46,626 nucleotides of DNA. Source: a virus. Shown piece by piece: positions 1-46,626 of the stretch (the first letter of the stretch is position 1; each line of letters starts with the position of its first letter). The position numbers and the translations under genes are program-made. The stretch spans positions 1 through 46,626 of IMG/VR virus record IMGVR_UViG_3300037851_000404. The stretch is one strand, 5' to 3'. The notes below the pieces were generated by a model that was given only the letters and a program-made list of their open reading frames with translations, did not search any database and was not told where the DNA came from.

Positions 1-127
1 GGGCGGTGCAGAGCAACTAATGCAGATGAAATCCCTCATGATGGGATACGAGAATTGGGCAATCATCACTGACCCAATCATCCACATTGGTCCCTACACT
101 CCGGCAGTAATTCAGACTGGCCAATAC
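1..127. repeat. 127-bp terminal direct overlap, identical to 46500..46626 (circular-assembly signature)
   Basis: Read base by base. gggcggtgcagagcaactaatgcagatg...cagactggccaatac occurs at both window ends. The overlap lies inside an ORF, not in an intergenic region. Confidence 0.95.
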
Positions 128-391
128 AAGTACCGCACCTACTCAGCCAATGGCAACTACCCTCACGGCTTCGGAGTCTTAGTCTCCTACGCAGTCCTCG
201 GAGGCGAAGATGGCTACAAGCATGCTAAACTTGGAGAGCAGCAATTTACTAATCGTCACAAGATTCGCGTCGACGACTACTGGGCAAAAGCGATGGAAGT
301 TGGCAAAGCTGAACATGAATGGCTTAATGAACGCAAGAAGTACGACTACCTAGAAATTCTTTCAACTAAACCTTGGGAACAAGTTACTTAA
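1..391 (+). CDS. GT-A glycosyltransferase, C-terminal part (same gene as 45919..46626, continued across the junction)
   Basis: Frame of 45919 is continuous with the 20..391 ORF (46519 corresponds to 20). No stop until TAA at 389-391. Carries ...WGGAEQLMQMKSLMMGYENWAIITDPIIHIG... Confidence 0.8.
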   Translation, partial: GGAEQLMQMKSLMMGYENWAIITDPIIHIGPYTPAVIQTGQYKYRTYSANGNYPHGFGVLVSYAVLGGEDGYKHAKLGEQQFTNRHKIRVDDYWAKAMEVGKAEHEWLNERKKYDYLEILSTKPWEQVT

Positions 392-3964: not shown

Positions 3965-4639
3965 ATGGCAGAAATTAAATCTGACAACTTAGATGATCAG
4001 AATTTAGGGCAGCCAGTAGTAGGCCCTCGAGACACTACCGGCTCGCTCGACGATCAACATCTTGGCCAGCCAGTTGTTGGATTTGAGTTTGGAACAACCA
4101 CTGCTCCGACAACCTTAGGAGGTACCACAAGTGCTCCTACTACGGCTCCTCCAACTACTTTGGCTCCTACTTCTCTGGCTCCTACAACACTTACTCCCTC
4201 AACAAGCGCCCCTACGACGGCAGCGCCTACGACTCCAGAGCCGACAACTCTTCCACCTACAACACCTGAGCCGACATCGCTAGCTCCCACTACCCTTGCA
4301 CCTACAACTCAAGCGCCGACTACAGGGGCGCCAACAACAGTCACTCCTACGACTCAAGCTCCGACGACACTAGCTCCAACAACTATTGCACCTACAACCT
4401 TAGCACCTACTACAGCAGTTCCAACTACATCTGTTCCAACAACAGTTCTACCTACAACACTTGGCCCGACTACCATTCTAGGCTCGACTGTTCCACCTAC
4501 TACCGAATACCCTGCATGTCCAGTAGCGGAACTATCTACAATCAATGATGAGATTCTCATCTACTCTCTCATCAAAGATGCCTGGGAAGCCGACTCACTA
4601 ATCGAGGACTCTATAACAGTCTACTCATTGGTGTGCTAA
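3965..4639 (+). CDS. Mucin-like Pro/Thr-repeat protein
   Basis: 224 aa. Residues 43-180 hold 25 x-x-P-T-[TS] pentads (APTT, VPTT, EPTT...). N-terminal duplicated LDDQ[NH]LGQPVVG and C-terminal [IV]YSL[IV] repeats. Confidence 0.7.
   Translation: MAEIKSDNLDDQNLGQPVVGPRDTTGSLDDQHLGQPVVGFEFGTTTAPTTLGGTTSAPTTAPPTTLAPTSLAPTTLTPSTSAPTTAAPTTPEPTTLPPTTPEPTSLAPTTLAPTTQAPTTGAPTTVTPTTQAPTTLAPTTIAPTTLAPTTAVPTTSVPTTVLPTTLGPTTILGSTVPPTTEYPACPVAELSTINDEILIYSLIKDAWEADSLIEDSITVYSLVC
4091..4504 (+). repeat. 15-nt-period coding repeat (x-x-Pro-Thr-Thr)x25
   Basis: GCNCCNACNACN-type units with synonymous third-position variation between units, read directly. Confidence 0.85.
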
Positions 4640-8252: not shown

Positions 8253-9057
8253 AGAAGAAATCAATAAGATGTTTGAATCGCTGGAAAAAGTGATCGAGGA
8301 GAAAACTACGCCTCTTTCAACTGATCCGCCTAAGGCAGATGATCTGAAAACAGATCCGCCGGCAACTAATCCGCCTTCAGATGACGGTAACAAGACTGAT
8401 CCTCCATCCACTGACCCGCCGGAGGATGAGGCTACTAAGTACAAAAGGGAGGCAGACGAGCTCAGGCAAAAACTCGCTGAGATGGAATCTTCCAAGGACA
8501 AACCTCCGAAGACGAAACCTCCTACAACAGACCCTCCTGTGTCTGATGAAGATTTCGTCAAGGATCTTGACTTGGATGATCTTACGTCCGACAAGTCTGC
8601 GCTCAATAAGGTACTCAATGAAATCTATCGTAAGGCAGTAGTAACTGCCAGGCAAGATCTCAAGCGTTCATCTGAAACCCTTGCCAAAGCAGTTCCTGCT
8701 GAAACAGCTGATCTCATCAAAAAGCAGGAAGCCCTTGCTGATATTAGCAAGAAGTTTTACGAATCTAACCCTGACCTCAAGTCCTTCAACAAGGTAGTTG
8801 GAGTTGTCTTTGAGGACATTGCAACAAAGAATCTGGATAAAACCTATCCGCAGATTCTGGAAATGGTAGGTGAAGAAACTAGAAAGCGACTAAACCTTCC
8901 CAAACCGAAGGCTCAACCTGACTCCAAGCCTAATGATAATGACAAACCACCTCCGCTCCCTCGTAAGAAAGGGGCGAAGGTATCTCAGCAACCTAAACCT
9001 GAACCTGGTTCTGTTTTCTCTCAGATCGAGGAAATGAACAAGGTTCTAAATTCCTAG
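8242..9057 (+). CDS. Putative scaffolding protein with TDPP repeats
   Basis: Lies between portal and capsid. Acidic and coiled-coil with TDPP/KPP repeats. GGAGG lies 9 nt before the ATG at 8242 (the ATG at 8233 abuts the RBS). Confidence 0.5.
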   Translation: MGTKEEINKMFESLEKVIEEKTTPLSTDPPKADDLKTDPPATNPPSDDGNKTDPPSTDPPEDEATKYKREADELRQKLAEMESSKDKPPKTKPPTTDPPVSDEDFVKDLDLDDLTSDKSALNKVLNEIYRKAVVTARQDLKRSSETLAKAVPAETADLIKKQEALADISKKFYESNPDLKSFNKVVGVVFEDIATKNLDKTYPQILEMVGEETRKRLNLPKPKAQPDSKPNDNDKPPPLPRKKGAKVSQQPKPEPGSVFSQIEEMNKVLNS

Positions 9058-9068
9058 GAGGTAACAAA

Positions 9069-9515
9069 ATGTCTCTTGAGGACAGAGGTGCTCAGCACGA
9101 CAAGGTTGTGGTCGATAAGTACCACGACCCTATCGCGAACTATGTCATGTCTACCAGGGACTACGTCATGCGCCCTACGGCGACCCCTGGTACCGGCGCA
9201 ATCACTATCACCCTCCCTCCGGTGGCTGAAGCCAAGGGCCGCTGGTACAGCATCATTGCTCGCCAGGCTGATGCTGTCAACACTATCACCATCGAAGACA
9301 ACAATGACGACAGCGAGTGCTGGATGGGAGACATTGTTCTCGATGGGAAGTGCGATCGCTGCCTGCTCTACAGCGATGGCCTCGCCTGGCATGTCATGGG
9401 GAATCCTGGTGAGTGGCCTGGCCTTAGCAGCACTCCGGCTCCTGGAACTTCTCAGGCTCCGACTACTGCTGCTCCGCAGACTACTGTCGCACCTACCACT
9501 GGGACTGGTGCATAA
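9069..9515 (+). CDS. Hypothetical capsid-module protein with C-terminal Pro/Thr tail
   Basis: 148 aa, AGGAGG RBS, GC-rich codon usage. C-terminus SSTPAPGTSQAPTTAAPQTTVAPTTGTGA. Confidence 0.6.
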   Translation: MSLEDRGAQHDKVVVDKYHDPIANYVMSTRDYVMRPTATPGTGAITITLPPVAEAKGRWYSIIARQADAVNTITIEDNNDDSECWMGDIVLDGKCDRCLLYSDGLAWHVMGNPGEWPGLSSTPAPGTSQAPTTAAPQTTVAPTTGTGA

Positions 9516-14756: not shown

Positions 14757-16451
14757 ATGGCTTGGAACCAGCCAGATAGTTTCCACATAACAGATGGGGC
14801 AGTAGCTAGCGGTGTCATAACTGATACCTACACAGACAATGGCATCAAGCATGTGTTGGAAGAAGTTACTGGCACCCCTGGGATGGACTACGAGTACTGG
14901 TTTGCCACTGTTCCAGCCTACAACTGGATCAGAGTTCATGTTAATGGTTACTATGAAGGCAATCCAGCTCATGATGTAGAGATTAGCGTCTGGAACTTTA
15001 CCTCGTCTGCATGGGATCACTTTGATACCATGTTAGATGCCTCAGCTGATGCTGATTTTTACTCACCTGATCTCCCAGGTGCTGACTACATCAGCGGTGG
15101 AGTTGTTAAGGTTAGATTTCATCATCCTGATTCTGGAAACACTTCACATAGGCTATACCTTGATGCTGTGTTGCTTGAGGATAGGTCTAGTTTTCACACC
15201 ACAGTGGCTCCGACAACTGTGCCTCCCACAACAGTGGCTCCATCAACTCCGGTTCCAACCACTACCTTAACCACTCCAGTTCCAACTACTACATTAACAA
15301 CAGCTCCGCCAACAACTCCTTGGGGCGAAGACATCTACGTCGATCCGATAGAATTAACTCTATCTAGCAAGCATGTTTTTCACTACAATCCGCCTGCTCC
15401 TGTCAATCCAGGGCTTGATCGAACTTGGACGTTTGAAGATCTTCCAATTGAAATAACTTTGTCCATTCAAGGACAGAACCAGTATGCAGGAATTCTAGTT
15501 GATCCAATCGAGATCATTATCACTCCTGTCCATTCGCAGTTTAGCGAAGGCCAAACGATTGAAGTAGATCCAATCGACCTTGTTATAGTCCCAACCTTTG
15601 ATGACATTCTTAAGTCATTCGACAGATGCAATTTTATCAAGTGGTCCAAGGTCGGAAGGTTTGACTTTACCATAGATGAAAGTAATGAAGCTGGAGAGCG
15701 TCCTGTAGATTGGAATGGATGCATCTGGCATGTGGCAAAGCTTGGATCAGCAGTAGGTGTGTACGGAACTAATGGCGTTACACTACTTAAGCCAAGTGGT
15801 GTTAACTGGGGAATGGACACTATTTATCGAATAGGGCTTAAGAACAAAGGAGCGTTTGCTGGAAGTGAGAGCAGACACTTCTTCGTTGACAACCTTGGGC
15901 AGCTATTCCAAGTTGATGAGACTTTGACTAGGCTTGACTATTCTGAATTTATCAGTAGAATGAGCACAGTTATACTTAGTCTTGACATTGAAAAGAACTT
16001 ACTCTACATCTGCGATGGAACCCTTGGATTTGTCTACAGCATTGAATCTAAAAGCTTTGGTGAAGGCCCAGTTAATGTCACGGGGTTTGGGGCTCAAAGT
16101 GGAAACATCTACGTAGTTAGCTACGGAGACATCATTACACCGAAGCTTGAAATCTGCACTGACATCTATGATTTTGAAACTAGGCGTCAGAAAACAATTA
16201 AGTCAATTGAAATAGGAACTGACTCAACTCAGTTCTTGTATGCATCGCTAGATTATCGAACTAGCTACAAAGATGACTTTAAGCAAATAGGATGGTTCTT
16301 AGTCAATCCAGATGGAAAGGCTTATCCTAAGTGCTACGGAGTTGAATTCAGATTCAGAATCAAATCTTTGATTTATGAGTATTTGGAAATAGATTATTTG
16401 AAAGTAAGAGGCCACATCCATGGCTTCTCGTATCTTGATTCAGTTGGATAG
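14757..16451 (+). CDS. Tail protein with internal Pro/Thr linker and DPIE repeats
   Basis: 564 aa. TTVAPTTVPPTTVAPSTPVPTTTLTTPVPTTTLTTAPPTTP at about 15196-15320, followed by four [VL][DP][PI][IE]...-type units (VDPIELTL, LPIEITL, VDPIEIII, VDPIDLVI). Confidence 0.55.
   Translation: MAWNQPDSFHITDGAVASGVITDTYTDNGIKHVLEEVTGTPGMDYEYWFATVPAYNWIRVHVNGYYEGNPAHDVEISVWNFTSSAWDHFDTMLDASADADFYSPDLPGADYISGGVVKVRFHHPDSGNTSHRLYLDAVLLEDRSSFHTTVAPTTVPPTTVAPSTPVPTTTLTTPVPTTTLTTAPPTTPWGEDIYVDPIELTLSSKHVFHYNPPAPVNPGLDRTWTFEDLPIEITLSIQGQNQYAGILVDPIEIIITPVHSQFSEGQTIEVDPIDLVIVPTFDDILKSFDRCNFIKWSKVGRFDFTIDESNEAGERPVDWNGCIWHVAKLGSAVGVYGTNGVTLLKPSGVNWGMDTIYRIGLKNKGAFAGSESRHFFVDNLGQLFQVDETLTRLDYSEFISRMSTVILSLDIEKNLLYICDGTLGFVYSIESKSFGEGPVNVTGFGAQSGNIYVVSYGDIITPKLEICTDIYDFETRRQKTIKSIEIGTDSTQFLYASLDYRTSYKDDFKQIGWFLVNPDGKAYPKCYGVEFRFRIKSLIYEYLEIDYLKVRGHIHGFSYLDSVG
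15196..15320 (+). repeat. Pro/Thr-coding repeat including a tandem 27-nt duplication (PVPTTTLTT x2)
   Basis: ccggttccaaccactaccttaaccact / ccagttccaactactacattaacaaca read directly; acagtggctcc also occurs twice. Confidence 0.75.
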
Positions 16452-18892: not shown

Positions 18893-21800
18893 TGGCTTCT
18901 TTTGAAGATCTTGTCAAAAATCCTGGTGTTAAGAGCACTGATGAGATTAGTCGGAAGGCTGCTCCTTCAACTGCGAGCAATTTCAAGTCTATGGTTGGCC
19001 CAGGTGGATTTCCATCTACTCCATTCGATGACTTGATGAAGGGCGCCTCTGACCAACATCAGGTTCCTTACGATATCTTGTATAATACGCTTAAGGCCGA
19101 ATCTGGATTCAATCCTAAGGCTAGAAACAAAACTTCAACTGCCAAGGGAATAGCTCAGTTTATTGATAGTACTGCAAAGGAAATGGGCATAGATCCACTC
19201 GATCCAAAGCAAGCTATTCCCGCGGCAGCTAAGTATTTGAAAAGTCATTATGATAGATTCGGATCATGGAAGTTGGCAGTCGCTGCTTATAATCAAGGGC
19301 CTGGAGCAGTTGCTAAGAAGAAAGGAATCCCTGATGAGGCAATAGATTATGTGGCTAAGATTGTTCAAGGTAGAGATAATGAGCCTGATACAATAGCTGA
19401 TGATGTTGAGCTTGTTGCTAGCGAGAGTAGGTTTGCAGACTCATTTGAATCCTTGATGAAGATGTCAAATTCAAAACCTCAGCCTCAGCCGGCTGCTGTG
19501 AAGCCATCTATTACAAAGCCTGCTCAGGTCAAGTCTACTGAGATCAGTGAATCTAGGTTCCTCAACAAAACTGAAGATCCAGTTCGTGAGTACTTTACTC
19601 AGAAAGCTTACGGCGTTGGAGCATGGCATCCTGCGTTCTCAGCTGAAATGGCAAAGAAAGGCTTTGGACCTAAGCCTGCTGGTGGATGGGATGAGCTTGG
19701 AAGGCCTATTGATGAGAAAGGTATTCCTTACTTTGAAGAACCAGCAGTTAGCAAGAATGCAGTAGTTGAATCCACAGCTCAGATGCTAAAGGGACTTTCA
19801 GGGCTAGCAACTCGCCCTATGGAAGCGATCAAGGGTGGACTGGACTTTTTCTTCTCCTTACCTGCATTTAAAGTTGGGCTGTTAGGCGCTGCAGGGAGAG
19901 GTACAGGTGAGTTGATTGATCAGCTTGCTTATGGCACCCTTGACCTCGACAAAATCTATAGTGCCATGGTCAAGGGAATGCAGGAGTCTTTTGAATTCTT
20001 CGAGCCTGGCAAGGAAGCTCTGATTGGTAAGCCGACTGAAGAATCTCAACTTGTTGGTCAAATTGCTATGGCTCCGCTGAATGCAATCAGTGCTGCAGGT
20101 CAGCAGATTGCTGCACTTGATACATTCAAAGATTATCCGAATGTAAGGGGTGCAACTAAGATCATTGGTGACTTGACTGGGCTAATAGCTATAGGATTGA
20201 TAGTCAAGGGTCCGTCTGCTAAGGCTGAGTTTTCGAAGGTACTTGAAGACATTACCAATGATGCTTCGAATATAGTCAAGCGTGAAACTCAGATTCTTCA
20301 GAATGTTGATTCGCTGGTTAGAGCAGCTGAGTTGAAAAAACTCGAAATTGATAAGCAGAGACTCGAGAACAAAGCTGCTGAGTTTGCTAGGAAGTTTCAA
20401 GATGATGTTGTGATGACTGAGGAAATGGGCAGGTTGAATGAGCAACTTGCAAAAGAAAAGCTACGTCCAGTAGTTGAGTCTCGACCTGAGATGGCTGAGG
20501 GATATGTAGAGAAGCCTGTGAAGTTGACGAAGAAAGAGGCTGAGAAGGTTGCTAAAAGAGAAGCGAAAGAAGCAGAGCCAACAGTTGAATTCGAGCCTGA
20601 GTTTCAAAAAGTAAAAGAATCAATCGAATCTAATCCTGAACTATCTGGACTTGTTAGGGTAGATGCAATTGGAGCTGAGGGTACTTCACTTAAGCCAGGA
20701 AGTGTTCAAGTCACAGTCATCGGTGAACACCCTGCGAAGGGAGGAAGCTTCACAGTAGATGCTGAGCCTGGGAGTATAGTCAAGAGGCTTGAAGAAGAAG
20801 CTGTTAAGTGGAGTAAGGGGAAGAAAGAACCTGTTGTTGTTAAGAAGAGGAAGAAAGTAGAGGAACCTCCCAAGGTTGAGGAACCTACATCAATCGAAGA
20901 GGAGATGCCTGAATCGCATCTTAGGGCCTTAGATGGATTGATTGAAGATGCTGAAAGGCCTGAGGTTACTAGTCCTAAGAGAGAAGTAGTTACTGAAATA
21001 GATCGCGATGCTGGAGCTGAACTTCCTGGTGTTGATGTAGATAATGGAATGTTCTTTCAAAACGCTAAGAAGGCAAAGAAGCTCGGTGACATATTTGATA
21101 GCAAAAGAGAGAAAGTTCTCGAAGACCCTGAAGTGTTTGTACAGAAACTAATCAATGATACTAATAGATGGTATCATGGAGATAGTTCAGTAGATATTAC
21201 TAAGGTTAGAGATTTGCTTAGCCAAATGGCTTCGAGGGCTAGTGAGCTTAGAGACTTTTTCATAACTGGAGTTGATCATCTTCAGTTTACTGAACTCACT
21301 CATGAAGCTGCTAAGTGGGCAAGAAGTGTTGAGAGACCTAACTTGGGAGGTAAGGGAGTTAGGCTCAACATGATGGTGCCGATAGATCAGATTCCTGAGA
21401 CTGTTAAACAGTTTATTAGGTACACTAGGGGAGCGATTAAAAGTATCAGAGCTAGTGAAGTTGCTAGGGATAAAAATCTTTGGAAGTCCACTGGGTATTG
21501 GCTTGGAAGGGATGGGAAGTGGAGGTATGAATTAGATACTTCTAAGGCTAAGTATAGTCCCAGTTTGTATCATACTGATAAAGTCATGAAGGATGGAGTC
21601 ACTGAAGGGCCTCTTACTGACTTCCTTAATTATCGAGAACTATATGAAGCCGTTCCTCAAACCAAGTCCTTGGTATTGAAGGTAGATAAAAAACTTTCAG
21701 CTGATGCTAGCTACAATCAAGGAATTATAACGCTCAGAGACATGGATGATGTTATAAGTTTATTTCATGAGCTTCAACATGCAGTCAATGAATTCACTGG

Positions 21801-24800
21801 TTCGGTGTTTATAGGGACTAATGAATTCACTGAGCATTCAAAGATAATGGCTGAAAGACTTAGGAAAATATCTGACAGGATGGCTGGTGAGGGAAAGACT
21901 TATGAATCAACTGTGTTGAATAAGTATGTTGATGCTCTTAATGATGGATTTAGGATAAATAATATAGAAGGTCAATTGGCTAAGGCCAATGTTAGACTTG
22001 AGCCTAGAGACATTCAAGATATTAATTTCCCTACTGGAGCATTTGAAAAGTATGTGAGAAATCCAGGAGAAATGGAAGCTAGGCTGGCTGAGAAAAGACT
22101 TAGAATGTCTAAGGATCAGAAAGCCAGTGAAGCTCCCTGGGAGACACTTGATAAGATGTTGGTGGAGGAGCTTAGGCCAACTGGGGTTGGGAGGACTCTC
22201 TACACTGGAACTGAATTTGAAGCTGGAATGAGGGCAGCTATTGCAGGTGCTCGTAAGGTTGCTGAATATACTTCAAAGGCCAGAGGACTTAAGAAGGTTA
22301 ATCTAAAGGAAGCTGCTAAGGTTATTAGAGAGGAGTTCAACAGGGCGTTTGTTGATAAGTCTGGGAACATTAGGAAGGAAATGCTTGACAAACTCAAAGA
22401 TGAAGGATTTGAGGTTGTTAAGAAGATGTACTTGGCAAAGGGAGCTTCTTCGCTTGCTGCCGCTAAGCTGAGGCAAATGAGGAAGGAAGTCTATCATGGG
22501 CTTACCAAGAGCGAGAAGAAAATTCTCGATGATGTTATTCTTGATGATAGAATGATTGATATTGCTAAGTACAAAAGTCCTAGTGAATTTAAGTTTCCTA
22601 AGGGAGTTAGTATAGAAAACTTTATTCAACATAGGATTGGGTTTCATATAATTGAGAAACTCAGCCCATCTCGAGCTGCGCTGATTGAAGCCAGAGCAGC
22701 TGCATATTATGAGTGGATGAAGAGACCACTTATGGATATGCTTGAGTCTGGGCTGATTAGTAAGAAGGAATTTGATGATCTTTCTTCTCACAACTATCGG
22801 CGCCTTGAGCAGGTTGAGAAGATTTTTGATTCCAAGTATAGGGCCAAAGTAGGTGGAAAGAAGATCACTGTCTATGACTCAGGTGTTGAGGCTTTGAGGC
22901 GTGGTAAGGAGACTGACATCTATGAGCCATCGTCAGAGATTATGGCCCTTGAGGTTTTCAATAGGGCATATGGCAGGATTTTGAAGAATGAGGCTAATAA
23001 GTCTCTGGTTGAACTTGCAAGGAGGGATCCAACTAATCCATTTGTTAGAATTCGAGACAAGTCAAAGGGAGACGCTGGGAAGATTCCTGAAGGATGGACT
23101 AGGATATTTGCATTCGAAGATGGAACCAGAAAATCTATCCACATCTCACCTGAGGTGGCTAAGGAATGGGTTAGTAGTGGGCCTGAGGTTTCTTACAGAT
23201 TGGGACAGTTCCTTCGCTATGCAAGTGGGTCTCCAGTGTTGAGGACATTTGCTACTGGGATCAACTGGGGATTTGCTCTTGCTAATATTCCCAGGGACGT
23301 GATGCATTCTTGGTTCACATCTAGATCATATGAGAATGGGAAGTGGAAGCCTGTTTATAATCCTAATCTTCCAGTCTTCATGGCTCAGATGGGGAGAGAC
23401 ATAGCTACTGTCCTTCCTGATGCGCTGACCAGAGGAAAGAGATACCAAGACTATCTCAACGAAGGTGGAGGGATGGAGTTCTTGGTTCATCAAGGTAGAC
23501 TGTTCCAGAGAGGTAGGCACCTTGAGAGTTGGTATGATAGGGTGATGGACTTCATGGGGTATCTTGGTGAAACAAGTGAGATAATGACTCGGCTGGCTAT
23601 CAGAGAAAGAATGCTTAGGAAAGGTAAGAGTGGCAGTGACGCTACATTTGCTGCTAGGGACTACATGGACTTTGGACAGGGAGGTGGAATCTCTAAGGCC
23701 CTTGATAATGCGCTTCCTTATCTGAATGCAAGTATTCAAGGCACAAGGGGAATGTTCAGAGCATTTAAACCTGGAAGTGGAAGTGCCTTGAGTTCGACTT
23801 ATAAACTGACTCAGTTTGCAGCGCTGATTACTGGTCTAACTATTGCAATGCAGAAGATGCATCCTGAGACGGCTAAGAACCTGGTTGGGAATATAGATGC
23901 ACAGAACAACTTGATCATTCCACTTGGAGATCAGTTTGGTTTTGAGGATGCTGAAGGGCAGATGCATTATCCTTATCTGAAGATTCCTCTTGACCCTGCT
24001 CAAAAGTTCTTCAAAACATTCTTTGAGGCAGCCACTAATAAATGGTTAGGGAAGGATGTAGATGTTGATGCAGTTACTGGTACCTTGACTGCTCAATCTC
24101 CAGTTGGGATATCCCAGCTTCCACCTACCATTAGTGGAGCACTTGGATATCTCACCAACAAAGACTTCTGGCTGAATGAAGATATCTGGAAGGAAACTGA
24201 TAGGCCATTTAGTTATCCAAAAAGTGCTGAGGAATTTACTAGGACAACTCCAGAGTTTTACAAAGATCTTGGGGCTAAGACTGGACTAAGTCCTGAAAGA
24301 ACAAGATATGCAGTAGAGGAATTAGTTACTGGTGGAACAGTTTGGTCTTACTTGCTGGGCCAAGGCTATGATGCAATGTTTAGGGATGTTCCGAAAAGTG
24401 CAAAGCAACAGCATTTAGCTGAGACAATTAGTAAAGTGCCTATGATTAAAAGGTTTATTGGAATCACTAATCCATACTCCAAGCATGCAACTAAGATCAA
24501 CACTGCTCAGGAAAACGCTGTGATTGATCAGTTTGTGCAAGACAGAGGAATGGATACTTTGGTCTATAGATTCTTGTATGATAAGAATGTAGATTCAAAG
24601 GAACTGTTTGATTACGCAAGTTCGTTTGGCGACAAGCCTACGTATGATAGATTGATTGATAGGTTTAAGTGGGAAGTAGCAATTAAGGACTTGCCTGAGA
24701 AATCTTTCTGGCGAAGGATGAAGGGGCTTAGGCTTGAAGCTAAAGCTAATGTGTTTGTAGATAGGCTTAGTGCTGCTAGTGAAGATGAGAAGGTAAAGTT

Positions 24801-24894
24801 AATGAATGAACTTGAAATAGTTGGAAGCGCCAAAGGCATTGTGTCTAAGGAGTTCAAGAATGAAGTTATGAAGGTGTTGGAATCGAAAAGATAA
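18892..24894 (+). CDS. Giant polyvalent ejection protein: N-terminal lytic transglycosylase (SLT) domain plus HExxH zincin-like motif
   Basis: 2000 aa. SLT-like LKAESGFNPKARNKTSTAKGIAQF...AAYNQGPGAV at about 19060-19330. HELQH encoded at 21766-21780. Long charged linkers. Confidence 0.75.
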   Translation: MASFEDLVKNPGVKSTDEISRKAAPSTASNFKSMVGPGGFPSTPFDDLMKGASDQHQVPYDILYNTLKAESGFNPKARNKTSTAKGIAQFIDSTAKEMGIDPLDPKQAIPAAAKYLKSHYDRFGSWKLAVAAYNQGPGAVAKKKGIPDEAIDYVAKIVQGRDNEPDTIADDVELVASESRFADSFESLMKMSNSKPQPQPAAVKPSITKPAQVKSTEISESRFLNKTEDPVREYFTQKAYGVGAWHPAFSAEMAKKGFGPKPAGGWDELGRPIDEKGIPYFEEPAVSKNAVVESTAQMLKGLSGLATRPMEAIKGGLDFFFSLPAFKVGLLGAAGRGTGELIDQLAYGTLDLDKIYSAMVKGMQESFEFFEPGKEALIGKPTEESQLVGQIAMAPLNAISAAGQQIAALDTFKDYPNVRGATKIIGDLTGLIAIGLIVKGPSAKAEFSKVLEDITNDASNIVKRETQILQNVDSLVRAAELKKLEIDKQRLENKAAEFARKFQDDVVMTEEMGRLNEQLAKEKLRPVVESRPEMAEGYVEKPVKLTKKEAEKVAKREAKEAEPTVEFEPEFQKVKESIESNPELSGLVRVDAIGAEGTSLKPGSVQVTVIGEHPAKGGSFTVDAEPGSIVKRLEEEAVKWSKGKKEPVVVKKRKKVEEPPKVEEPTSIEEEMPESHLRALDGLIEDAERPEVTSPKREVVTEIDRDAGAELPGVDVDNGMFFQNAKKAKKLGDIFDSKREKVLEDPEVFVQKLINDTNRWYHGDSSVDITKVRDLLSQMASRASELRDFFITGVDHLQFTELTHEAAKWARSVERPNLGGKGVRLNMMVPIDQIPETVKQFIRYTRGAIKSIRASEVARDKNLWKSTGYWLGRDGKWRYELDTSKAKYSPSLYHTDKVMKDGVTEGPLTDFLNYRELYEAVPQTKSLVLKVDKKLSADASYNQGIITLRDMDDVISLFHELQHAVNEFTGSVFIGTNEFTEHSKIMAERLRKISDRMAGEGKTYESTVLNKYVDALNDGFRINNIEGQLAKANVRLEPRDIQDINFPTGAFEKYVRNPGEMEARLAEKRLRMSKDQKASEAPWETLDKMLVEELRPTGVGRTLYTGTEFEAGMRAAIAGARKVAEYTSKARGLKKVNLKEAAKVIREEFNRAFVDKSGNIRKEMLDKLKDEGFEVVKKMYLAKGASSLAAAKLRQMRKEVYHGLTKSEKKILDDVILDDRMIDIAKYKSPSEFKFPKGVSIENFIQHRIGFHIIEKLSPSRAALIEARAAAYYEWMKRPLMDMLESGLISKKEFDDLSSHNYRRLEQVEKIFDSKYRAKVGGKKITVYDSGVEALRRGKETDIYEPSSEIMALEVFNRAYGRILKNEANKSLVELARRDPTNPFVRIRDKSKGDAGKIPEGWTRIFAFEDGTRKSIHISPEVAKEWVSSGPEVSYRLGQFLRYASGSPVLRTFATGINWGFALANIPRDVMHSWFTSRSYENGKWKPVYNPNLPVFMAQMGRDIATVLPDALTRGKRYQDYLNEGGGMEFLVHQGRLFQRGRHLESWYDRVMDFMGYLGETSEIMTRLAIRERMLRKGKSGSDATFAARDYMDFGQGGGISKALDNALPYLNASIQGTRGMFRAFKPGSGSALSSTYKLTQFAALITGLTIAMQKMHPETAKNLVGNIDAQNNLIIPLGDQFGFEDAEGQMHYPYLKIPLDPAQKFFKTFFEAATNKWLGKDVDVDAVTGTLTAQSPVGISQLPPTISGALGYLTNKDFWLNEDIWKETDRPFSYPKSAEEFTRTTPEFYKDLGAKTGLSPERTRYAVEELVTGGTVWSYLLGQGYDAMFRDVPKSAKQQHLAETISKVPMIKRFIGITNPYSKHATKINTAQENAVIDQFVQDRGMDTLVYRFLYDKNVDSKELFDYASSFGDKPTYDRLIDRFKWEVAIKDLPEKSFWRRMKGLRLEAKANVFVDRLSAASEDEKVKLMNELEIVGSAKGIVSKEFKNEVMKVLESKR

Positions 24895-30540: not shown

Positions 30541-30802
30541 CGTTAGCCTCCTTGCTGCGCTTGTCGGCTTCTTTCAGCGACTTGATTATGTCTCTTGGTT
30601 TAGCAGCTTGATCGAGGAGGATTCCGATGACTATTTGACCATGCTCCTCGATCAAATCAAGAAGGTCCTCAAGAATCGGAGTCATTATAGCCTTGCGAAC
30701 TCCATGAGTTGATAGCAGGACATTGGCTCGATTCTTTAGTTCCTCGCTAATTTCAAACGCAAAGCGAGGAATGTAAGGGGTGGTGTCTAGCTTGCTCATC
30801 AT
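30533..30802 (-). CDS. Hypothetical; possible ribbon-helix-helix DNA-binding protein
   Basis: 89 aa. IPRFAFEISEELKNRANVLL resembles an RHH beta-strand plus helix. Weak call. Confidence 0.3.
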   Translation of the reverse strand: MMSKLDTTPYIPRFAFEISEELKNRANVLLSTHGVRKAIMTPILEDLLDLIEEHGQIVIGILLDQAAKPRDIIKSLKEADKRSKEANDG

Positions 30803-31983
30803 CTCCTCCAGGTTGTAGTTGGCATTATTACTTCCTTGATTATTCTATCATGATATGGATAGATGGTTTTGATTAAAGTAGATATTTCTCCGCCAATGTC
30901 GGTAGTTGGGATGTAGCCGAGATCGAATAGTTTCTGATGAGCTGGGTTGTAGTAATGATTGTAGGATTCTGACCTAACATTTGGAAGGTTTTGGACTCTA
31001 GTTGAGATGCCTAGTTCAGATGAAGCTGTAATGACTTCAGATGCAAGCTGGGATATTGAGTAGATGTTTTCGAACTGGTTGAGTGTTCTGTATTCGCCAA
31101 GTTGGGGTGGATTATCTATGACGATATTAAGGCATTGGATTGAATCTTTGAGCGGCAAGTAGCCACGCGTCTGAGATCCATTGCCGTAGATTGTCAATGG
31201 AATGTTGGATAGAGATTGGACACAGAAGCGGTTGATAACTGTGCCAAAGTACTGATCGTAATCAAAGCGGGTGATTAGGTACTCGTCGTCATCTGTGGTA
31301 TTCAGACCGAAGACTACGCCCTGCATGATGTCAGTTGAGCGAAGTCCCCAGAGCTTGCAGGTGAAGATGATGTTGTGAGTGTCGTGGACTTTGGATAGGT
31401 GATAGAAGGACCAAGGGGAGCGAGGGAAAGGGAGGCCAGCCATAGGACAGTCCATAGTAGATGCATATCCATCGTAGTTGCCAAGGCATTCTGGAATCTC
31501 CCCTTCAGGAATGTCACAGTTAGGTGTCCCATACTCTCCCATTGTTCCGAGTTTGACCAAGTGAGCATTTGGACAGTGATCATGCATAGCCCAGAGGAGG
31601 GCTAAGGTTCCAGAAATATTGTGATGTTGGGTAGTGATAGCATGTCTCACGTTGACCATTGAGTAGGGTGCTGAAGGTTGCTCGGCCAAGTGGACAATTG
31701 TATCAGGCTTGTATTCCCTAAGGACTCTGGAAACCAGGTACTCATCATGAAGATTGATGAAGGCTATGGAGTCGATGAAGTTAGGGAATTTCTTAAGGTA
31801 TTCATTCCTTTGATCGTGAGACTTGATTGGGGTTAGAGAAGTACTCCCAGTTGTTTTAACTCTCAGACGTCGACTAAGATTGTCTAGTCCACAGACTTCG
31901 TATTTATCAGGTTGACGAAGCAGATGGTTAGCAAGTGCCCATCCAATATAGCCGTCTATTCCAAGAATCAGGACTCTATTCAA
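30799..31983 (-). CDS. sqdB: UDP-sulfoquinovose synthase (SQD1/SqdB)-like extended SDR
   Basis: 394 aa from TTG, with GGAGG 7 nt upstream. GIDGYIGW Rossmann motif. VKLGTMGEYGTPN, FYHLSKVHDTHN, NRFCVQS and GSQTRGYL match the SQD1 signature blocks as I recall them, including the SQD1-type Thr, Tyr-His and Lys. Confidence 0.7.
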   Translation of the reverse strand: MNRVLILGIDGYIGWALANHLLRQPDKYEVCGLDNLSRRLRVKTTGSTSLTPIKSHDQRNEYLKKFPNFIDSIAFINLHDEYLVSRVLREYKPDTIVHLAEQPSAPYSMVNVRHAITTQHHNISGTLALLWAMHDHCPNAHLVKLGTMGEYGTPNCDIPEGEIPECLGNYDGYASTMDCPMAGLPFPRSPWSFYHLSKVHDTHNIIFTCKLWGLRSTDIMQGVVFGLNTTDDDEYLITRFDYDQYFGTVINRFCVQSLSNIPLTIYGNGSQTRGYLPLKDSIQCLNIVIDNPPQLGEYRTLNQFENIYSISQLASEVITASSELGISTRVQNLPNVRSESYNHYYNPAHQKLFDLGYIPTTDIGGEISTLIKTIYPYHDRIIKEVIMPTTTWRR

Positions 31984-32524
31984 GGTCGAACCTCCTTAAG
32001 GTGACATTTCCGAAGTCGGCAATTTCTAGAGATTTCTCGTGGTAAGGGATAGATTCGAGGGTGACTAGCTCAGTGATTCCTGCGTTGACTATTGCAATCA
32101 TGCAGTCTTTGCAAGAGATTTCCTTAGTGTTCATGTACATAGTGCAGCCTAGCACTGAGGTGCCTAGACGAGCTGCATTGATGATAGCATTTACTTCTCC
32201 GTGGGCTGCAGGACATTCATGTAGACCTTCACCGCTTTTGTAGCCTTTAGATCGTCGAGGGCAGGAGTTAACTGTTACGACTTGAGGTTCACCTTTGCAT
32301 CTAATAATCTTTCCTGGGGCAATACTTGTTGCTGAGATTGGTCTGGCAGATATGATTGCTTGGACTGAACTGCAGTGAGGGAATCCTCGTGGAGGGCCAT
32401 TGTAGCCTGTTGAGACTATCGAATGGTCTCTCACGAGGATCACACCTACTTGCCGGGACAAGCAGGGAGATTTAGCAGCCACTGCATTGCAGATGTCGAA
32501 GAAGTACTTGTCCCAGCGGTCCAT
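31976..32524 (-). CDS. dCMP deaminase (zinc-dependent CDA family)
   Basis: 182 aa from the internal ATG at 32524, with a GGAGAA RBS directly after the upstream stop. HGEVNA (HxE) and SCKDC (CxxC) zinc motifs. Confidence 0.8.
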   Translation of the reverse strand: MDRWDKYFFDICNAVAAKSPCLSRQVGVILVRDHSIVSTGYNGPPRGFPHCSSVQAIISARPISATSIAPGKIIRCKGEPQVVTVNSCPRRSKGYKSGEGLHECPAAHGEVNAIINAARLGTSVLGCTMYMNTKEISCKDCMIAIVNAGITELVTLESIPYHEKSLEIADFGNVTLRRFDLE

Positions 32525-32525
32525 G

Positions 32526-32867
32526 TTAGAATTTCTCCTCTCGGATGCAGGCATATAGTTTGAAGAGATAGTTGAAGGTATCGACGAACTTTTCTTCCCA
32601 CAGCTCGATTGGAAGCTGTTCCTCGCTGATCTTCGTTGTCGTCTGGCCGCCGAACTCAGCATTGATCATATCACTGAGGGACATGATAGGTTTGGACACA
32701 AGGTCCATGATCATCTGCGGAGTTTCCTTGTTGCGGAACCTGGCGAGGTTGCGAAGGCTGAGGAGAACATCTTGCTCGCTGAAGTATTCCTTCTCCTTCT
32801 CCCTGCGCTTTGCAGCGGCCTTGGCGAGGATAACTCGGTAGTACTTTTCGAAGAGCTCTTTATCCAT
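32526..32867 (-). CDS. Hypothetical; possible all-alpha NTP-PPase/DUF1599-like protein
   Basis: 113 aa. The C-terminal EKFVDTFNYLFKLYA resembles the D..NY helix of DUF1599/MazG-like proteins. Weak call. Confidence 0.3.
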   Translation of the reverse strand: MDKELFEKYYRVILAKAAAKRREKEKEYFSEQDVLLSLRNLARFRNKETPQMIMDLVSKPIMSLSDMINAEFGGQTTTKISEEQLPIELWEEKFVDTFNYLFKLYACIREEKF

Positions 32868-44491: not shown

Positions 44492-45328
44492 ATGATTGAC
44501 TACCTGATCACCGGAGGTAATGGATTCATAGGGAGGAACCTAACTCATTCCCTCTCTACCTCCGGTAAATCTTTCATCGTAGTCGATCTTCGCGCTAACG
44601 GCTTTGCCGTCGAATATACTTACGATGTCACTTATCAAATCCCAAGGATTCAATCCAACACTATCATCCATCTCGCTTCAGAGACCAATGTCCGAGAGTC
44701 CATCAAGCTCCCACTTCACACCTTTCGCAGAAACTGCGAAGGTGTTTTAAATTGCTTAGAAATGATCAGAGACCTAAACCTCTCATCCAGACTCATCTTC
44801 ACCTCGTCAGCAAGTTCATTCAACTCATCTTCACCCTACCTAGCATCCAAACAATCTTGTGAATCCATCTGTAAGGCCTACAAAGAATCCTTCGGCATAG
44901 ACACTCGAATCCTCAAGCTCTCCAACGTCTATGGCCCCTTCTCTGTCCACAAACACAGCGTAATCCCTAAATTCATCAAATCTTGTCTACTCTTCAAGCC
45001 ACTCCAAATCTTTGGCGATGGGACTCAGCAACGAGACTTTGTCCATGTCAGAGATGTCATCAGCTCAATCATAAACGGCCAAGAAGGATTCATCACCTCA
45101 GGCATTGGCACCAGGATCATCGACCTAGCTGAGATGATTTCTTCAATCTCAGACAAGCTCCTCAACTACCGTCCCAAAATAGTCTTCGAAAACTCCATAA
45201 GCGGAGAGGTAAAAGTCCCTAGATTCCTCTCCTCAATAACTCCCTCCATCAATCTCGAAGATGGACTACTCTCAACCTTCAAATGGTTTAAAGAGAACTA
45301 TGAAACTAAACTGCTGGTCAATGCCTGA
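44492..45328 (+). CDS. NAD-dependent sugar-nucleotide epimerase/dehydratase (extended SDR)
   Basis: 278 aa. TGGNGFIG Rossmann motif and catalytic Y-x3-K in SSPYLASK. Confidence 0.75.
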   Translation: MIDYLITGGNGFIGRNLTHSLSTSGKSFIVVDLRANGFAVEYTYDVTYQIPRIQSNTIIHLASETNVRESIKLPLHTFRRNCEGVLNCLEMIRDLNLSSRLIFTSSASSFNSSSPYLASKQSCESICKAYKESFGIDTRILKLSNVYGPFSVHKHSVIPKFIKSCLLFKPLQIFGDGTQQRDFVHVRDVISSIINGQEGFITSGIGTRIIDLAEMISSISDKLLNYRPKIVFENSISGEVKVPRFLSSITPSINLEDGLLSTFKWFKENYETKLLVNA

Positions 45329-45917
45329 AGTCAATCGTGCCGAGAGCACTTGGGGTCAAAAGACTCCTCCATACACTTTGGACATGTTCAACTTTGCAAT
45401 CACCCAGTGCAATAGTTGGCTTGACCTAGGCTGCGGCTTCGGACGATTTCTATCTTACCTCACTTCAGGCATCGAAGATCCAGACTACATCGGCTATGAC
45501 TCTTCAGATTCAATGCTGGAGCGCGTCAAAGAAAATTTCCCCCACTTCAGTCCACGAATCTTCAACCATCCTATAACCAACCCTATCACCAACATCCAAG
45601 AGTCAATCATCTGCAGCGCAGTCTTCATCCACATCACTCTCGAAGACCAGCAAAAGGTCCTAAATAACATCCTAAAAGCCAATCCGAAGCGCTTCACCTT
45701 CGACATTAACTCTCCAGCTGAATCAACTATAATCAAAACTCCCCACTTCGAACGCTTTGTGAGGGGTGCCGAGGGTGCTTTTCGCATGACTTGGCAATCT
45801 CACTACGAAATGACCAGAAAAATCCTTTCAATGTTCAAGTCTTACTCACTCTCAGTCAAATTCTACACTATCAACACCAACAGAATCAAAGCAGTTTACA
45901 TGCTCGAAAGGGCCTAA
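45300..45917 (+). CDS. Class I SAM-dependent methyltransferase
   Basis: Motif I LDLGCGFGR. Start uncertain: ATG at 45300 or 45321, while the track ORF starts at 45261 inside the epimerase gene. Confidence 0.6.
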   Translation: MKLNCWSMPEVNRAESTWGQKTPPYTLDMFNFAITQCNSWLDLGCGFGRFLSYLTSGIEDPDYIGYDSSDSMLERVKENFPHFSPRIFNHPITNPITNIQESIICSAVFIHITLEDQQKVLNNILKANPKRFTFDINSPAESTIIKTPHFERFVRGAEGAFRMTWQSHYEMTRKILSMFKSYSLSVKFYTINTNRIKAVYMLERA

Positions 45918-45918
45918 A

Positions 45919-46626
45919 TTGAAACTTTCAATCATCATCTCTAACCGCAACGACATAGTAATGCTCAATGTCACCCTCAACAATGCCATTGAGATGCTCA
46001 AGACCTTCGATGGCGGTGGTGAGATCATCATCTGTGACAATTCAGACCCTAAGTTCTACGAACTAATGCCTATCGCCTATCCTCTTGGCTGGTTAAAGCA
46101 GGGCCTAGTAAAAGTCATTCGTCAGGAAGAACCCTGTTTCACCAGTGCAAGAATGAAAGCCGCAGAACATGCTCAAGGTGAATACATCTTCTGTATTGAC
46201 TCTCATGTGCTCTTTGGTCTTAACACTCTACGCGATAGTATCTCTTTTATGGATCGCCATGCAGATAATGCCAGACTCGGTTTTGGCCATCCTCCAATAC
46301 GCTGGGCTCACCAAGGTCCAGCCGCCATCAAACATACACTTAAAATAAGCGACAAGGGCCTTCCAAATGGAGGTTGGGACTGCGCTTACAAAACCGAGCG
46401 GAAGATGTTCTGGAAATTCATGCCTTGGATCTGCAGGCGAAGTTGGTTCCTAAACACCCTCCAAGGCTACGGAACTCACGCTACATCTGGTCTTTCTTGG
46501 GGCGGTGCAGAGCAACTAATGCAGATGAAATCCCTCATGATGGGATACGAGAATTGGGCAATCATCACTGACCCAATCATCCACATTGGTCCCTACACTC
46601 CGGCAGTAATTCAGACTGGCCAATAC
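45919..46626 (+). CDS. GT-A glycosyltransferase with ppGalNAc-T-like DxH and WGG-x-E motifs (N-terminal part; continues at 1..391)
   Basis: TTG at 45919, 1 nt after the upstream stop. I translated the frame and it stays open to the window end. KLSIIISNRND, ICDNSD, CIDSH (46198-46206) and SWGGAE (46498-46512). Confidence 0.7.
   Translation, partial: MKLSIIISNRNDIVMLNVTLNNAIEMLKTFDGGGEIIICDNSDPKFYELMPIAYPLGWLKQGLVKVIRQEEPCFTSARMKAAEHAQGEYIFCIDSHVLFGLNTLRDSISFMDRHADNARLGFGHPPIRWAHQGPAAIKHTLKISDKGLPNGGWDCAYKTERKMFWKFMPWICRRSWFLNTLQGYGTHATSGLSWGGAEQLMQMKSLMMGYENWAIITDPIIHIGPYTPAVIQTGQY
46500..46626. repeat. 127-bp terminal direct overlap, identical to 1..127
   Basis: See feature 1..127. Confidence 0.95.

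Follow-up and report, generated by a model that had tools for sequence, protein, structure and literature searches.

SQD1 and SqdB catalyze the committed step of SQDG synthesis, and among viruses mycobacteriophages reportedly glycosylate capsid and tail proteins by means of phage glycosyltransferases with an O-methyltransferase, while A064R of chlorovirus PBCV-1 is said to be a GT-GT-MTase. A putative UDP-sulfoquinovose (UDP-SQ) synthase has been reported as an auxiliary metabolic gene (AMG) of a Mu-like virus from the Cariaco Basin, for which protein glycosylation was proposed, under a hypothesis on N-glycosylation in the host and on how proteins stay stable under pressure (Mara et al. 2020, PMC7785012). 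The passages of that report on the gene mention neither a partner transferase nor an acceptor and give no survey of lineages, and we liken that gene, from a different type of virus, to the one studied here by annotation and not by sequence. Virus-borne UDP-SQ synthase annotations therefore predate this analysis, both in that report and in the name UDP-sulfoquinovose synthase that JGI gives to homologs of our protein. Here we analyze an SQD1-like gene of an uncultured phage and propose that its product would supply a UDP-sulfosugar for the O-glycosylation of phage proteins, a reading to which, taken whole from donor through transferase to acceptor, we give about an even chance.

The window, by which we mean the whole stretch of 46,626 nucleotides, is a complete phage genome of ~46.5 kb with a 127-bp terminal repeat, in which bases 1-127 copy 46500-46626 as an assembly overlap, and a 100% identical Logan contig (L029) spans the window ends, establishing the circular junction. 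Neither an integrase nor a repressor module turned up in the window, no tRNAs were found in the genome, and the nearest relative is predicted to be lytic (PMC10370329); judged by its genes, this phage looks strictly lytic. The SQD1-like gene occupies 30799..31983 on the minus strand and encodes 394 aa, assigned by sequence and fold homology to an SQD1-family (Pro101-type) NAD-dependent UDP-sugar enzyme, a putative UDP-sulfoquinovose synthase. Its TTG start at 31983-31981 has GGAGG 7 nt upstream, and the start of the gene overlaps the stop of the dCMP deaminase gene by 8 nt (TTGAATAG). An earlier note on this DNA had called the same ORF, start and RBS, and these hold together with the overlap, except that the RBS itself, which the note had put across the deaminase stop, sits within the 3′ end of the deaminase gene and off its stop codon. 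As the note had also said, the gene lies between nucleotide-metabolism and DNA-methylation genes (the dCMP deaminase and a ParB/N6-N4 methyltransferase) and apart from the other sugar genes, which are ~12.5 kb away. This placement is not shared by L018 and L019, two relatives in which the SQD1 gene adjoins the capsid gene, inside the structural module.

The bearers of the gene are a widespread group of uncultured phages, a lineage with at least 210 TerL relatives, in which it is accessory. It was present in 29 of 72 relatives, with at least 11 changes on the PolA tree and at least four among the tabulated contigs. The deaminase varies independently of it (SQD1 by deaminase, 21/8/35/8), so a linkage between the two was rejected, as was one to the small ORFs orf89 and orf70, both of which also occur in SQD1-negative relatives. 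Among GenBank phages, tblastn with the protein returned only SDRs of 23% identity and megablast with 16 kb gave no match; no isolated relative with the gene was found there, and no GenBank cyanophage carries it. The nearest deposited phage, MD01 (46% identity in PolA), is CRISPR-linked to the sulfate reducer Desulfofustis and, as the only relative linked to a host, gives an indirect lead on the host of the present phage.

On sequence and modeled fold, the protein is a member of the SQD1 family, set apart from SDRs of the GalE/RmlB type. It is homologous end to end to SQD1/SqdB/Agl3 at 47% identity, phmmer aligned residues 1-394 to Arabidopsis SQD1 (1qrr) with E=4e-107, and the resemblance is far above chance level. 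With the AF2 model (pLDDT 85), Foldseek returned 1qrr/1i24/1i2b at E~6e-45 and TM 0.87-0.88, and next UDP-glucose 4-epimerases at E~7e-22 and TM 0.65, while the next NCBIfam family scored 46 bits. The SQD1 signature blocks quoted in the earlier note are all there (GIDGYIGW, VKLGTMGEYGTPN, FYHLSKVHDTHN, NRFCVQ, GSQTRGYL and a C-terminal IMPTTTWRR), and its assignment of the protein to SQD1, as opposed to generic epimerases or dehydratases, is borne out with the Tyr-His...Lys kept. The score of 451 bits against the NCBIfam model for UDP-sulfoquinovose synthase (NF041015, cut-off 575 bits) was rejected as evidence against membership, since Arabidopsis SQD1 itself (486 bits) and Arg-type bacteria (488-503 bits) also fall below the cut-off, which therefore fails to separate true members; Pro-type proteins scored 505-580 bits.

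Most of the active site is retained. In the numbering of the window protein, the key residues are G8xD10G11Y12xG14, H98, P103 (R101 in SQD1), T147, M148, E150, Y151, Y194, H195, K198, Q221 and R337, so that the Thr145/Tyr182/Lys186 triad of SQD1 and the family-specific His183 are present. Across a phage clade of ~119 proteins with 57-68% identity, the NAD-binding GxxGxxG, the triad and His183 are kept in 109-119 of 119 members and H96, M146, E148 and Y149 (SQD1 numbering) in at least 118, with Q209 and R327 also conserved, and the persistence of these residues at such divergence points to purifying selection. In Agl3, the equivalents His95, Met145, Glu147 and Tyr148 are essential or important (PMC4388408). 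The phage enzyme thus shares with SQD1/SqdB/Agl3 the fold (TM 0.87), NAD motif, triad, His183, Met146, Glu148, Tyr149, Gln209 and Arg327, but differs in having Met for Asn208, Pro103 (EQPSAP) for Arg101 (EQRSAP) and, in place of the fixed 34-residue hairpin before Tyr182, a hypervariable loop bracketed by cysteines, as well as in being accessory in a lytic-type phage. Cys156, Cys166 and Cys179, which flank this poorly modeled loop, are found only in the phage clade. The description of the enzyme as catalytically intact can accordingly be kept for Thr145, Tyr182, His183 and Lys186, and not for Arg101 or the hairpin.

Proline at position 101 is found in 117/119 phage-clade proteins and 21/21 IMG/VR loci, and also in 63/80 of the closest cellular homologs, which led us to reject it as a phage-specific trait. 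The cellular Pro101-type homologs come from Chloroflexota, Actinomycetota, Acidobacteriota, Desulfobacterota, Spirochaetia and Thaumarchaeota/Bathyarchaeia, that is, from non-phototroph Bacteria and Archaea, and in a neighbor-joining tree they form one clade with the viral sequences nested within it. They are at most 51% identical to the phage protein and carry the canonical hairpin without cysteines, in contrast to the Cys-bracketed loop of the phage enzyme. Their most frequent gene neighbors are GT2 glycosyltransferases (15/106), followed by SDRs (9/106), with GT4 and PAPS reductase, a source of sulfite, at 2/106 each. We know of no Pro-type enzyme that has been characterized. The product is likely UDP-sulfoquinovose on sequence grounds, a wording that we do not strengthen because the Arg101 replacement is common to the phage clade and this uncharacterized cellular subfamily.

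Given the change of Arg101 to Pro and the replacement of the flap, sulfite addition may be beyond the Pro-type enzyme. In this alternative, which would fit any acceptor, its reaction would end at UDP-4-keto-glucose-5,6-ene or proceed with a different nucleophile, and a partner SDR would complete a different 6-modified sugar. The R101A mutant of Agl3 is inactive and Agl3 makes the 5,6-ene when sulfite is left out (PMC4388408), the proline is nearly universal in the phage clade and common in the cellular homologs, and a second SDR recurs next to the cellular genes and is present in the phage, where it is homologous (E 1e-30 to 1e-39) to the SDRs directly downstream of cellular Pro-type genes. 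Pulling the other way are the retention of His183 and all other SQD1-specific residues, an NCBI UDP-sulfoquinovose synthase model that scores Pro-type proteins above SQD1, the PAPS reductase beside some cellular Pro-type genes, and the lack of the SDR and methyltransferase in many phages that carry both SQD1 and GT2, from which we conclude that these two are not required for the core reaction. We consider such altered chemistry possible, though it is not what we would expect.

The proposed consumer of the sugar was missed by the earlier note since the circular junction splits its gene over the two contig ends. It is a 323-aa GT-A glycosyltransferase (GT2, Pfam Glycos_transf_2) on the plus strand, with the N-terminal part (aa 1-236, including an invariant DSH) at 45919..46626 running across the junction and the C-terminal part at 1..391 (stop 389-391), directly upstream of TerL (407-1972). 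Two plus-strand genes precede it to complete a cluster directly 5′ of TerL, namely a short extended SDR of 278 aa (SDR278, 44492..45328), a putative nucleotide-sugar epimerase or reductase with TGGNGFIG and Ser...YxxxK in which the Asp-Glu dehydratase motif is absent, and a class-I SAM methyltransferase of 198 aa (45321..45917), a putative sugar O-methyltransferase that is fused to GT2 in P0231 and P0232. None of the four enzymes, the SQD1-like one included, has hydrophobic or TM segments.

The GT2 model (pLDDT 94.9) has as its top PDB folds the polypeptide GalNAc-transferases ppGalNAc-T10/T2/T4/T12 (E~1e-12), with TarP and TarS close behind (E~3e-11 to 1e-10), all of them moderate matches at 14-17% identity and TMq ~0.6. 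The phage enzyme differs from the ppGalNAc-Ts (GT27) in lacking the lectin domain and having a helical C-terminal domain instead. Its motifs DSH, WGG and H222, invariant in relatives, resemble the DxH, WGG(E) and distal-His motifs of ppGalNAc-T/TarP/TarS, which we take to be Mn-binding, a comparison made by motif and not by residue-level alignment. PDB sequence and NCBIfam searches with GT2 gave nothing useful, a BFVD fold search returned only generic uncharacterized phage GT-A proteins, and phmmer found no match between it and the GT2s beside cellular Pro-type genes.

Although the SQD1 gene and GT2 lie ~14 kb apart, they vary together. On the same contigs the counts of SQD1 by GT2 were 11/1/0/8 (Fisher p=7e-5, without phylogenetic correction, as for the other co-occurrence statistics, and with negative calls based on 7-kb flanks), so that GT2 is found on 11 of 12 SQD1-positive contigs; in the lone exception, GT2 most likely sits ~8.7 kb upstream of TerL, beyond the fetched flank. 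A third element follows the same pattern. Between TerL and the portal gene, the plus-strand ORF 3965..4639 encodes a mucin-like protein of 224 aa with APTT(x) tandem repeats at residues ~43-175 (22 PTT; DNA repeat periods of 15 and 45 nt at 4133-4445) and no signal peptide evident from its N-terminus, making it a candidate O-glycosylation acceptor. A second candidate is a 564-aa structural-module protein (14757..16451, plus strand; Pro/Thr-rich at aa ~148-190, DNA repeats 15197-15298), and a third, weaker one is the 148-aa product of an ORF shortly before the major capsid gene (9069..9515, plus strand), which has an APTT-like C-terminal tail (SSTPAPGTSQAPTTAAPQTTVAPTTGT). PTT-dense repeats occurred in 12/19 GT2-positive and 0/13 GT2-negative loci (p=4e-4), and none were present in the complete genome L028, which lacks both SQD1 and GT2.

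These observations suggest a pathway in which the SQD1-like enzyme, as a functional member of a hitherto uncharacterized Pro101-type subfamily expressed in the early/replication operon, would modify host UDP-glucose at C6. The most likely product is UDP-6-sulfoquinovose, which would arise through NAD-dependent 4-oxidation, 5,6-dehydration and then sulfite addition. This sugar would be the donor for the soluble, ppGalNAc-T-like (DxH/WGG) GT-A whose gene opens the late operon, the small SDR and SAM methyltransferase may help tailor it in this phage, and the most likely acceptors would be threonines in the APTT mucin-like repeats of structural-module proteins, giving phage proteins an acidic O-glycosylated surface. 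Product, donor-transferase relation, acceptor and virion location are all inferred, the location of the PTT proteins being assumed from gene position. Glycosylation of phage proteins was one of three roles offered in the earlier note, and the SQD1-GT2 co-variation and the restriction of PTT repeats to GT2-positive relatives make it the favored one. Also in its favor are the ConA-like lectin domains borne by PTT proteins of relatives, the capsid-side position of the SQD1 gene in L018 and L019, and a cellular parallel in the GT2 and SDR neighbors of Pro-type genes, whose SDRs match SDR278. As in the mycobacteriophage and PBCV-1 systems, a soluble viral GT-A and a methyltransferase are encoded next to structural genes, GT-MTase fusions occur, and Ser/Thr-rich segments co-occur with the transferase, here as APTT arrays in three ORFs. 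Unlike those systems, the present one is known from sequence alone, the phage would make its own unusual donor with the SQD1-type enzyme, the putative acceptors are long mucin-like APTT arrays, and the transferase resembles the GT27 family.

The same two enzymes could instead modify a host surface polymer from the cytoplasmic face, as the prophage-encoded TarP does with wall teichoic acid, with teichoic-acid-like polymers, LPS/CPS intermediates or S-layer proteins as possible targets, superinfection block or changed receptor recognition as the purpose, and the PTT repeats as unrelated linkers. TarP and TarS, which glycosylate teichoic acid, are among the GT2 fold matches; the island around GT2 is variable and in relatives includes a Peptidase_S74 fiber gene and a radical-SAM/GT2 fusion as well, as is typical of host-surface interplay; and 7/19 GT2-positive loci, including L018, showed no PTT repeat over the stretch analyzed. 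PT-rich linkers are, moreover, frequent in fiber proteins whether glycosylated or not. Against this, seroconversion is mostly a trait of temperate phages, so the lytic look of this phage counts against envelope remodeling, the ppGalNAc-T enzymes rank above TarP in the fold search, and PTT repeats are exclusive to GT2-positive genomes. We regard envelope remodeling as rather unlikely.

Still less probable is the classical AMG role that the earlier note had raised, in which the enzyme would raise host UDP-sulfoquinovose for SQDG and so spare phosphate for phage DNA. The place of SQD1/SqdB at the committed step, the early/replication operon and the JGI label agree with it, but the phage genome yielded no GT4 of the SqdX/SQD2 type, linkage of the gene to SqdX/SQD2 or SqdA/C/D is lacking, and the phage clade is nested in a non-phototroph subfamily with hardly any GT4 neighbors. 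The sulfate-reducing host of the one host-linked relative and the lack of cyanophage carriers in GenBank also argue against it, and the co-variation of the gene with a phage GT-A would go unexplained were a host transferase the consumer. The sulfolipid role is thus not supported.

Nor is the remaining role, in which the GT-A would put the sugar on phage DNA bases. Phage GT-As that glycosylate 5hmC exist, sometimes paired with epimerases and near terminase or ParB genes, but sugar hypermodification of DNA needs a 5-hydroxymethyl pyrimidine made by a ThyS-like hydroxymethylase or by C5-MT plus 5mYOX/TET, and JGT-like DNA GT-As carry R...DDD...EDY/F (bioRxiv 10.1101/2023.12.21.572611). Despite that precedent, a TarP-like GT2 fold and a gene in the replication module between dCMP deaminase and DNA methyltransferase, we consider DNA modification highly improbable, as Pfam and PHROGs revealed no 5mYOX/TET, thymidylate-synthase-like hydroxymethylase or C5-MTase in the window or relatives, GT2 has DSH/WGG and is neither JGT-like nor a GT-B of the T4 a/b-GT type, the deaminase link is not conserved, and L018 and L019 carry the gene among structural genes.

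Within the phage-protein O-glycosylation that we favor, a more specific version is a sulfated mucin-like coat, in which phage-made UDP-sulfoquinovose, optionally epimerized and methylated, would be O-linked by the GT27-like transferase to APTT threonines of virion-associated proteins, with the Cys-bracketed loop as a phage-specific regulatory or docking element. We put this forward tentatively and with some doubt. If true, sulfosugar O-glycoproteins would be known for the first time beyond archaeal N-glycans, and a virus would for the first time be seen to make its own sulfonated sugar donor. The favored reading, if correct, would shift the "sulfur AMG" annotation from host metabolism to phage structural biology. 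A self-contained donor-synthase/transferase/acceptor module, small and cloneable, would then give virion or fiber proteins an anionic glycan coat that may affect adsorption, sticking to mucus or exopolymers, protease resistance and host recognition. Beyond phages, a large Pro101-type branch in Chloroflexota, Actinomycetota, Thaumarchaeota and others is labeled UDP-sulfoquinovose synthase without biochemical support, and its links are with GT2, not with sulfolipid synthases, which bears on estimates of which organisms make sulfoquinovose in nature.

The SQD1-like gene occupies 30799..31983 on the minus strand and encodes 394 aa from a TTG start, with GGAGG 7 nt 5′ of the start and an 8-nt overlap between the start and the dCMP deaminase stop upstream (TTGAATAG), exactly as the earlier note had placed it, and every motif block quoted there is found in the protein. 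In a phmmer search of PDB sequences, Arabidopsis SQD1 (1qrr/1i24/1i2b) gave the best matches over the whole length (E~1e-106 to 4e-107), the remaining SDRs reaching only E >= 2e-7. An AlphaFold2 model made with 41 homologs as input (pLDDT 85.1) had its best matches in all three crystal structures of SQD1 (E~6e-45, TM 0.87-0.88, 45% identity), followed by UDP-glucose 4-epimerases and dTDP-glucose dehydratases (E~1e-21, TM ~0.65). Because SQD1 is far ahead in both searches, the protein does not group with these generic enzymes, and the membership proposed earlier holds. The score of 451 bits against the NCBIfam UDP-sulfoquinovose synthase model (cut-off 575) is uninformative, as SQD1 itself scores 486; Arg-type bacterial proteins, with Arg at SQD1 position 101, score 488-503 and Pro-type proteins 505-580. 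Assignment to the SQD1 family is supported, with one defining residue, Arg101, lacking.

The description of the enzyme as catalytically intact stands in part. In an alignment of SQD1 with 119 homologs from metagenomes, which are 57-68% identical and in many cases lie on contigs of 42-53 kb, the NAD motif and His96, Thr145, Met146, Glu148, Tyr149, Tyr182, His183, Lys186, Gln209, Arg263 and Arg327 are conserved, which shows purifying selection on what would be a working active site in the phage clade. Arg101 of SQD1 (EQRSAP), however, is replaced by Pro103 in the window protein, and Pro occurs in 117/119 homologs and 21/21 IMG/VR loci. Agl3, the Sulfolobus UDP-sulfoquinovose synthase, loses its activity with R101A and likewise with H95A, M145A, Y182A or K186A (PMC4388408). 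The Pro is not specific to phages, since 63 of the 80 closest cellular homologs from a scan of GTDB species representatives (at most 51% identical) also carry it, 14 having Arg; the 80 belong to Chloroflexota, Actinomycetota, Acidobacteriota, Desulfobacterota, Spirochaetia and Thaumarchaeota/Bathyarchaeia. In a neighbor-joining tree without bootstrap, Arg-type proteins group with SQD1 and Pro-type proteins form one clade, inside which the viral sequences are nested as a single group. No characterised Pro-type enzyme is known to us. We infer that the product is most likely UDP-sulfoquinovose; the less likely alternative is that Pro101 has changed the chemistry at C6.

The phage clade also differs from its cellular relatives before Tyr182, where 79/80 cellular homologs have a Cys-free hairpin fixed at 34-35 residues. 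The phage proteins have a variable loop in its place, a 40-56-residue segment (window residues ~153-191) bracketed by invariant Cys156, Cys166 and Cys179, which is the sole low-confidence part of the model (pLDDT 39-54). It may hold a metal site or a disulfide, or act as a docking loop.

The window holds the genome of a tailed phage, with TerL at 407-1972, a portal/adaptor protein at 5974-7929, the major capsid protein at 9572-10876 and, 3′ of the tail genes, a 2000-aa protein (18892-24894, plus strand) that is possibly ejected or located inside the virion; homologs of the latter in relatives give weak matches to LPD23/LPD38 (large polyvalent protein) domains. Other genes encode a primase, UDG-PolA, a ParB/N6-N4 methyltransferase, dCMP deaminase, a Sak4-like ATPase, a PD-(D/E)XK exonuclease and an ATP-dependent ligase. 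An N-terminal UDG-like domain is present on PolA throughout the lineage, and in two relatives the match to PolA extends over ~3.4 kb rather than ~2.5 kb (L331:5867-9271, L332:7001-10405), which suggests a ~0.9-kb intein- or homing-endonuclease-like insertion. An exact 127-bp terminal direct repeat (1-127 = 46500-46626) indicates that the assembly, ~46.5 kb long, is complete and either circular or permuted. Among GenBank phages we found neither a nucleotide-level match to the window nor a close homolog of the SQD1 gene. The nearest deposited genome, the metagenome-derived Desulfofustis phage LS06-2018-MD01 (PolA 46%, capsid 51% identity), was assigned to a sulfate reducer via CRISPR spacers (PMC10370329) and has no SQD1 gene.

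The gene does lie inside the replication module, as had been noted, and the order in relatives is ligase, HIRAN, exonuclease, Sak4, (deaminase), SQD1, two small ORFs, ParB-MTase, PolA, primase and giant protein. In a PolA-anchored census of 72 IMG/VR loci spanning the Sak4 to ParB-MTase interval, SQD1 was present in 29 and absent from 43, with at least 11 changes over the 68 tips of the PolA tree. It varies independently of the deaminase (both in 21 loci, SQD1 only in 8, deaminase only in 35, neither in 8), the two small downstream ORFs occur with or without it, and in the more distant loci L018 and L019 it is part of the structural module and directly follows the capsid gene. This accessory status, the independent deaminase and the second site identify the position as an insertion hot-spot, not a functional tie to nucleotide metabolism. 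The deaminase is listed at 31976-32662 (minus strand, 228 aa), overlapping the upstream ORF 32526-32867 by 137 nt; since its homologs have 168-181 aa, it probably starts at an internal ATG at 32524 (182 aa), directly after the stop of that ORF.

The likely partner of SQD1 is a 323-aa Glycos_transf_2 protein (GT2) directly upstream of TerL, following an SDR (44492-45328) and a SAM methyltransferase (45321-45917). Its gene (45919-46626 plus 128-391) is split across the contig ends and is therefore missed when ORFs are listed from the linear window; the ends are joined by Logan contig L029, which is 100% identical. The family has ~210 members, all on phage-sized contigs, and two natural MTase-GT2 fusions (P0231, P0232; 541-547 aa) tie the methyltransferase functionally to GT2. 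Where relatives carry a GT2 of 46% identity (L354:10001-15975, L355:4999-10973), the island is a richer glycan-tailoring and fibre island, which also encodes a 959-aa B12-binding radical-SAM + GT2 fusion and a Peptidase_S74 (fibre chaperone) protein. The AlphaFold2 model of P0128, 81% identical to the window GT2 (pLDDT 94.9), is closest to polypeptide GalNAc-transferases T10, T2, T4 and T12 (E 7e-13 to 1e-11, TMq ~0.6). At the level of motifs, the invariant D94-S95-H96, W194-G195-G196 and H222 resemble the DxH, the WGG(E) and the distal His of GalNAc-transferases and TarP/TarS. None of the four phage enzymes has hydrophobic segments. Prophage TarP and TarS rank next in the fold search, and a TarP-like modification of an envelope glycan is the strongest rival as to the acceptor, albeit an unlikely one.

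Among contigs for which the replication module was available together with the island upstream of TerL, 11 had both SQD1 and GT2, 8 had neither, one had SQD1 only and none had GT2 only (Fisher p = 7e-5, not corrected for phylogeny). On a TerL tree, SQD1 was gained or lost independently at least 4 times among these contigs. In the lone exception, GT2 (P0238) most likely lies ~8.7 kb upstream of TerL, beyond the 7-kb flank fetched, as the longest contig of P0238 and the exception contig are both 42401 bp. The SDR and methyltransferase were found only alongside the closest GT2 variants, so SQD1 and GT2 are the core pair. Cellular Pro-type genes offer a parallel: their commonest immediate neighbours (n=106) are GT2 (15/106) and a second SDR (9/106), with GT4 and PAPS reductase at 2/106 each. 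The phage SDR is homologous to these adjoining SDRs (blastp E 1e-30 to 1e-39, 29-34% identity); the phage GT2 has no detectable similarity to the adjoining GT2s. Thiamine-diphosphate enzymes are also neighbours (8/106; loci L116-L195) and, with the PAPS reductases, possibly link these genes to sulfonate or sulfite metabolism.

Candidate acceptors are encoded in the structural module. Between TerL and the portal gene, ORF 3965-4639 (224 aa) consists over residues ~43-175 of APTT(x) tandem repeats. It contains 22 PTT, its densest 40-aa window is 75% Ser/Thr/Pro, and the DNA at 4133-4445 repeats with periods of 15 nt and 45 nt. A comparable stretch occurs in ORF 14757-16451, and ORF 9069-9515, which immediately precedes the capsid gene, terminates in an APTT-like tail. 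Sequences of this kind resemble mucin-type acceptor peptides. PTT-dense repeats occur in 12/19 GT2-positive and 0/13 GT2-negative TerL loci (p = 4e-4), and none was found in L028, a complete genome without SQD1 or GT2; in relatives they lie within 600-740-aa proteins with ConA-like lectin domains. A distinct, acidic 'TDPP' / 'GTEAP' repeat, unrelated to the PTT arrays, is found in a possible scaffold or decoration protein whose gene (8233-9057, plus strand) separates those of portal and capsid. L070 and L097, where only ~0.3-1.6 kb upstream are covered and no GT2 match was found, carry this repeat too, as does L089, whose GT2 is probably outside the flank.

Of the three roles the earlier note had offered, protein glycosylation is favoured by the co-variation of SQD1 with GT2 and the restriction of PTT repeats to GT2-positive loci; whatever in this functional reading goes beyond homology and co-variation is inferred. 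An auxiliary metabolic gene for host sulfolipid appears distinctly improbable, having no transferase and no phototroph connection and leaving the co-variation with the phage transferase unexplained. Glycosylation of phage DNA is highly improbable, as DNA-modifying phage GT-A enzymes, sometimes accompanied by an epimerase, need a ThyS-like hydroxymethylase or C5-MT + 5mYOX and carry R...DDD...EDY/F motifs (bioRxiv 10.1101/2023.12.21.572611), none of which was found in genome scans and the GT2 alignment.

Several of these phage proteins were already named UDP-sulfoquinovose synthase by the JGI pipeline, and a putative UDP-SQ synthase, with a proposed role in host N-glycosylation, is reported for a Mu-like virus from Cariaco Basin metagenomes (PMC7785012). 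At least 123 viral contigs in IMG/VR carry SQD1-like genes, some in other virus types. Genes of 40-50% identity lie on contigs of very different sizes (L240, 227,725 bp; L244, 110,331 bp; L246, L249, L253, L270), which may be other virus lineages, possibly with independent acquisitions, or cellular contamination. In the titles and abstracts of the literature searched, sulfoquinovose in glycoproteins appeared only in archaeal N-glycan papers, and we found no earlier description of the Pro-type assignment, the Cys-bracketed phage loop or the accessory triad. Protein glycosylation is now sharpened to a testable three-part module, in which an SQD1-like donor synthase would feed a GT27-like transferase (GT2) acting on PTT-repeat proteins.
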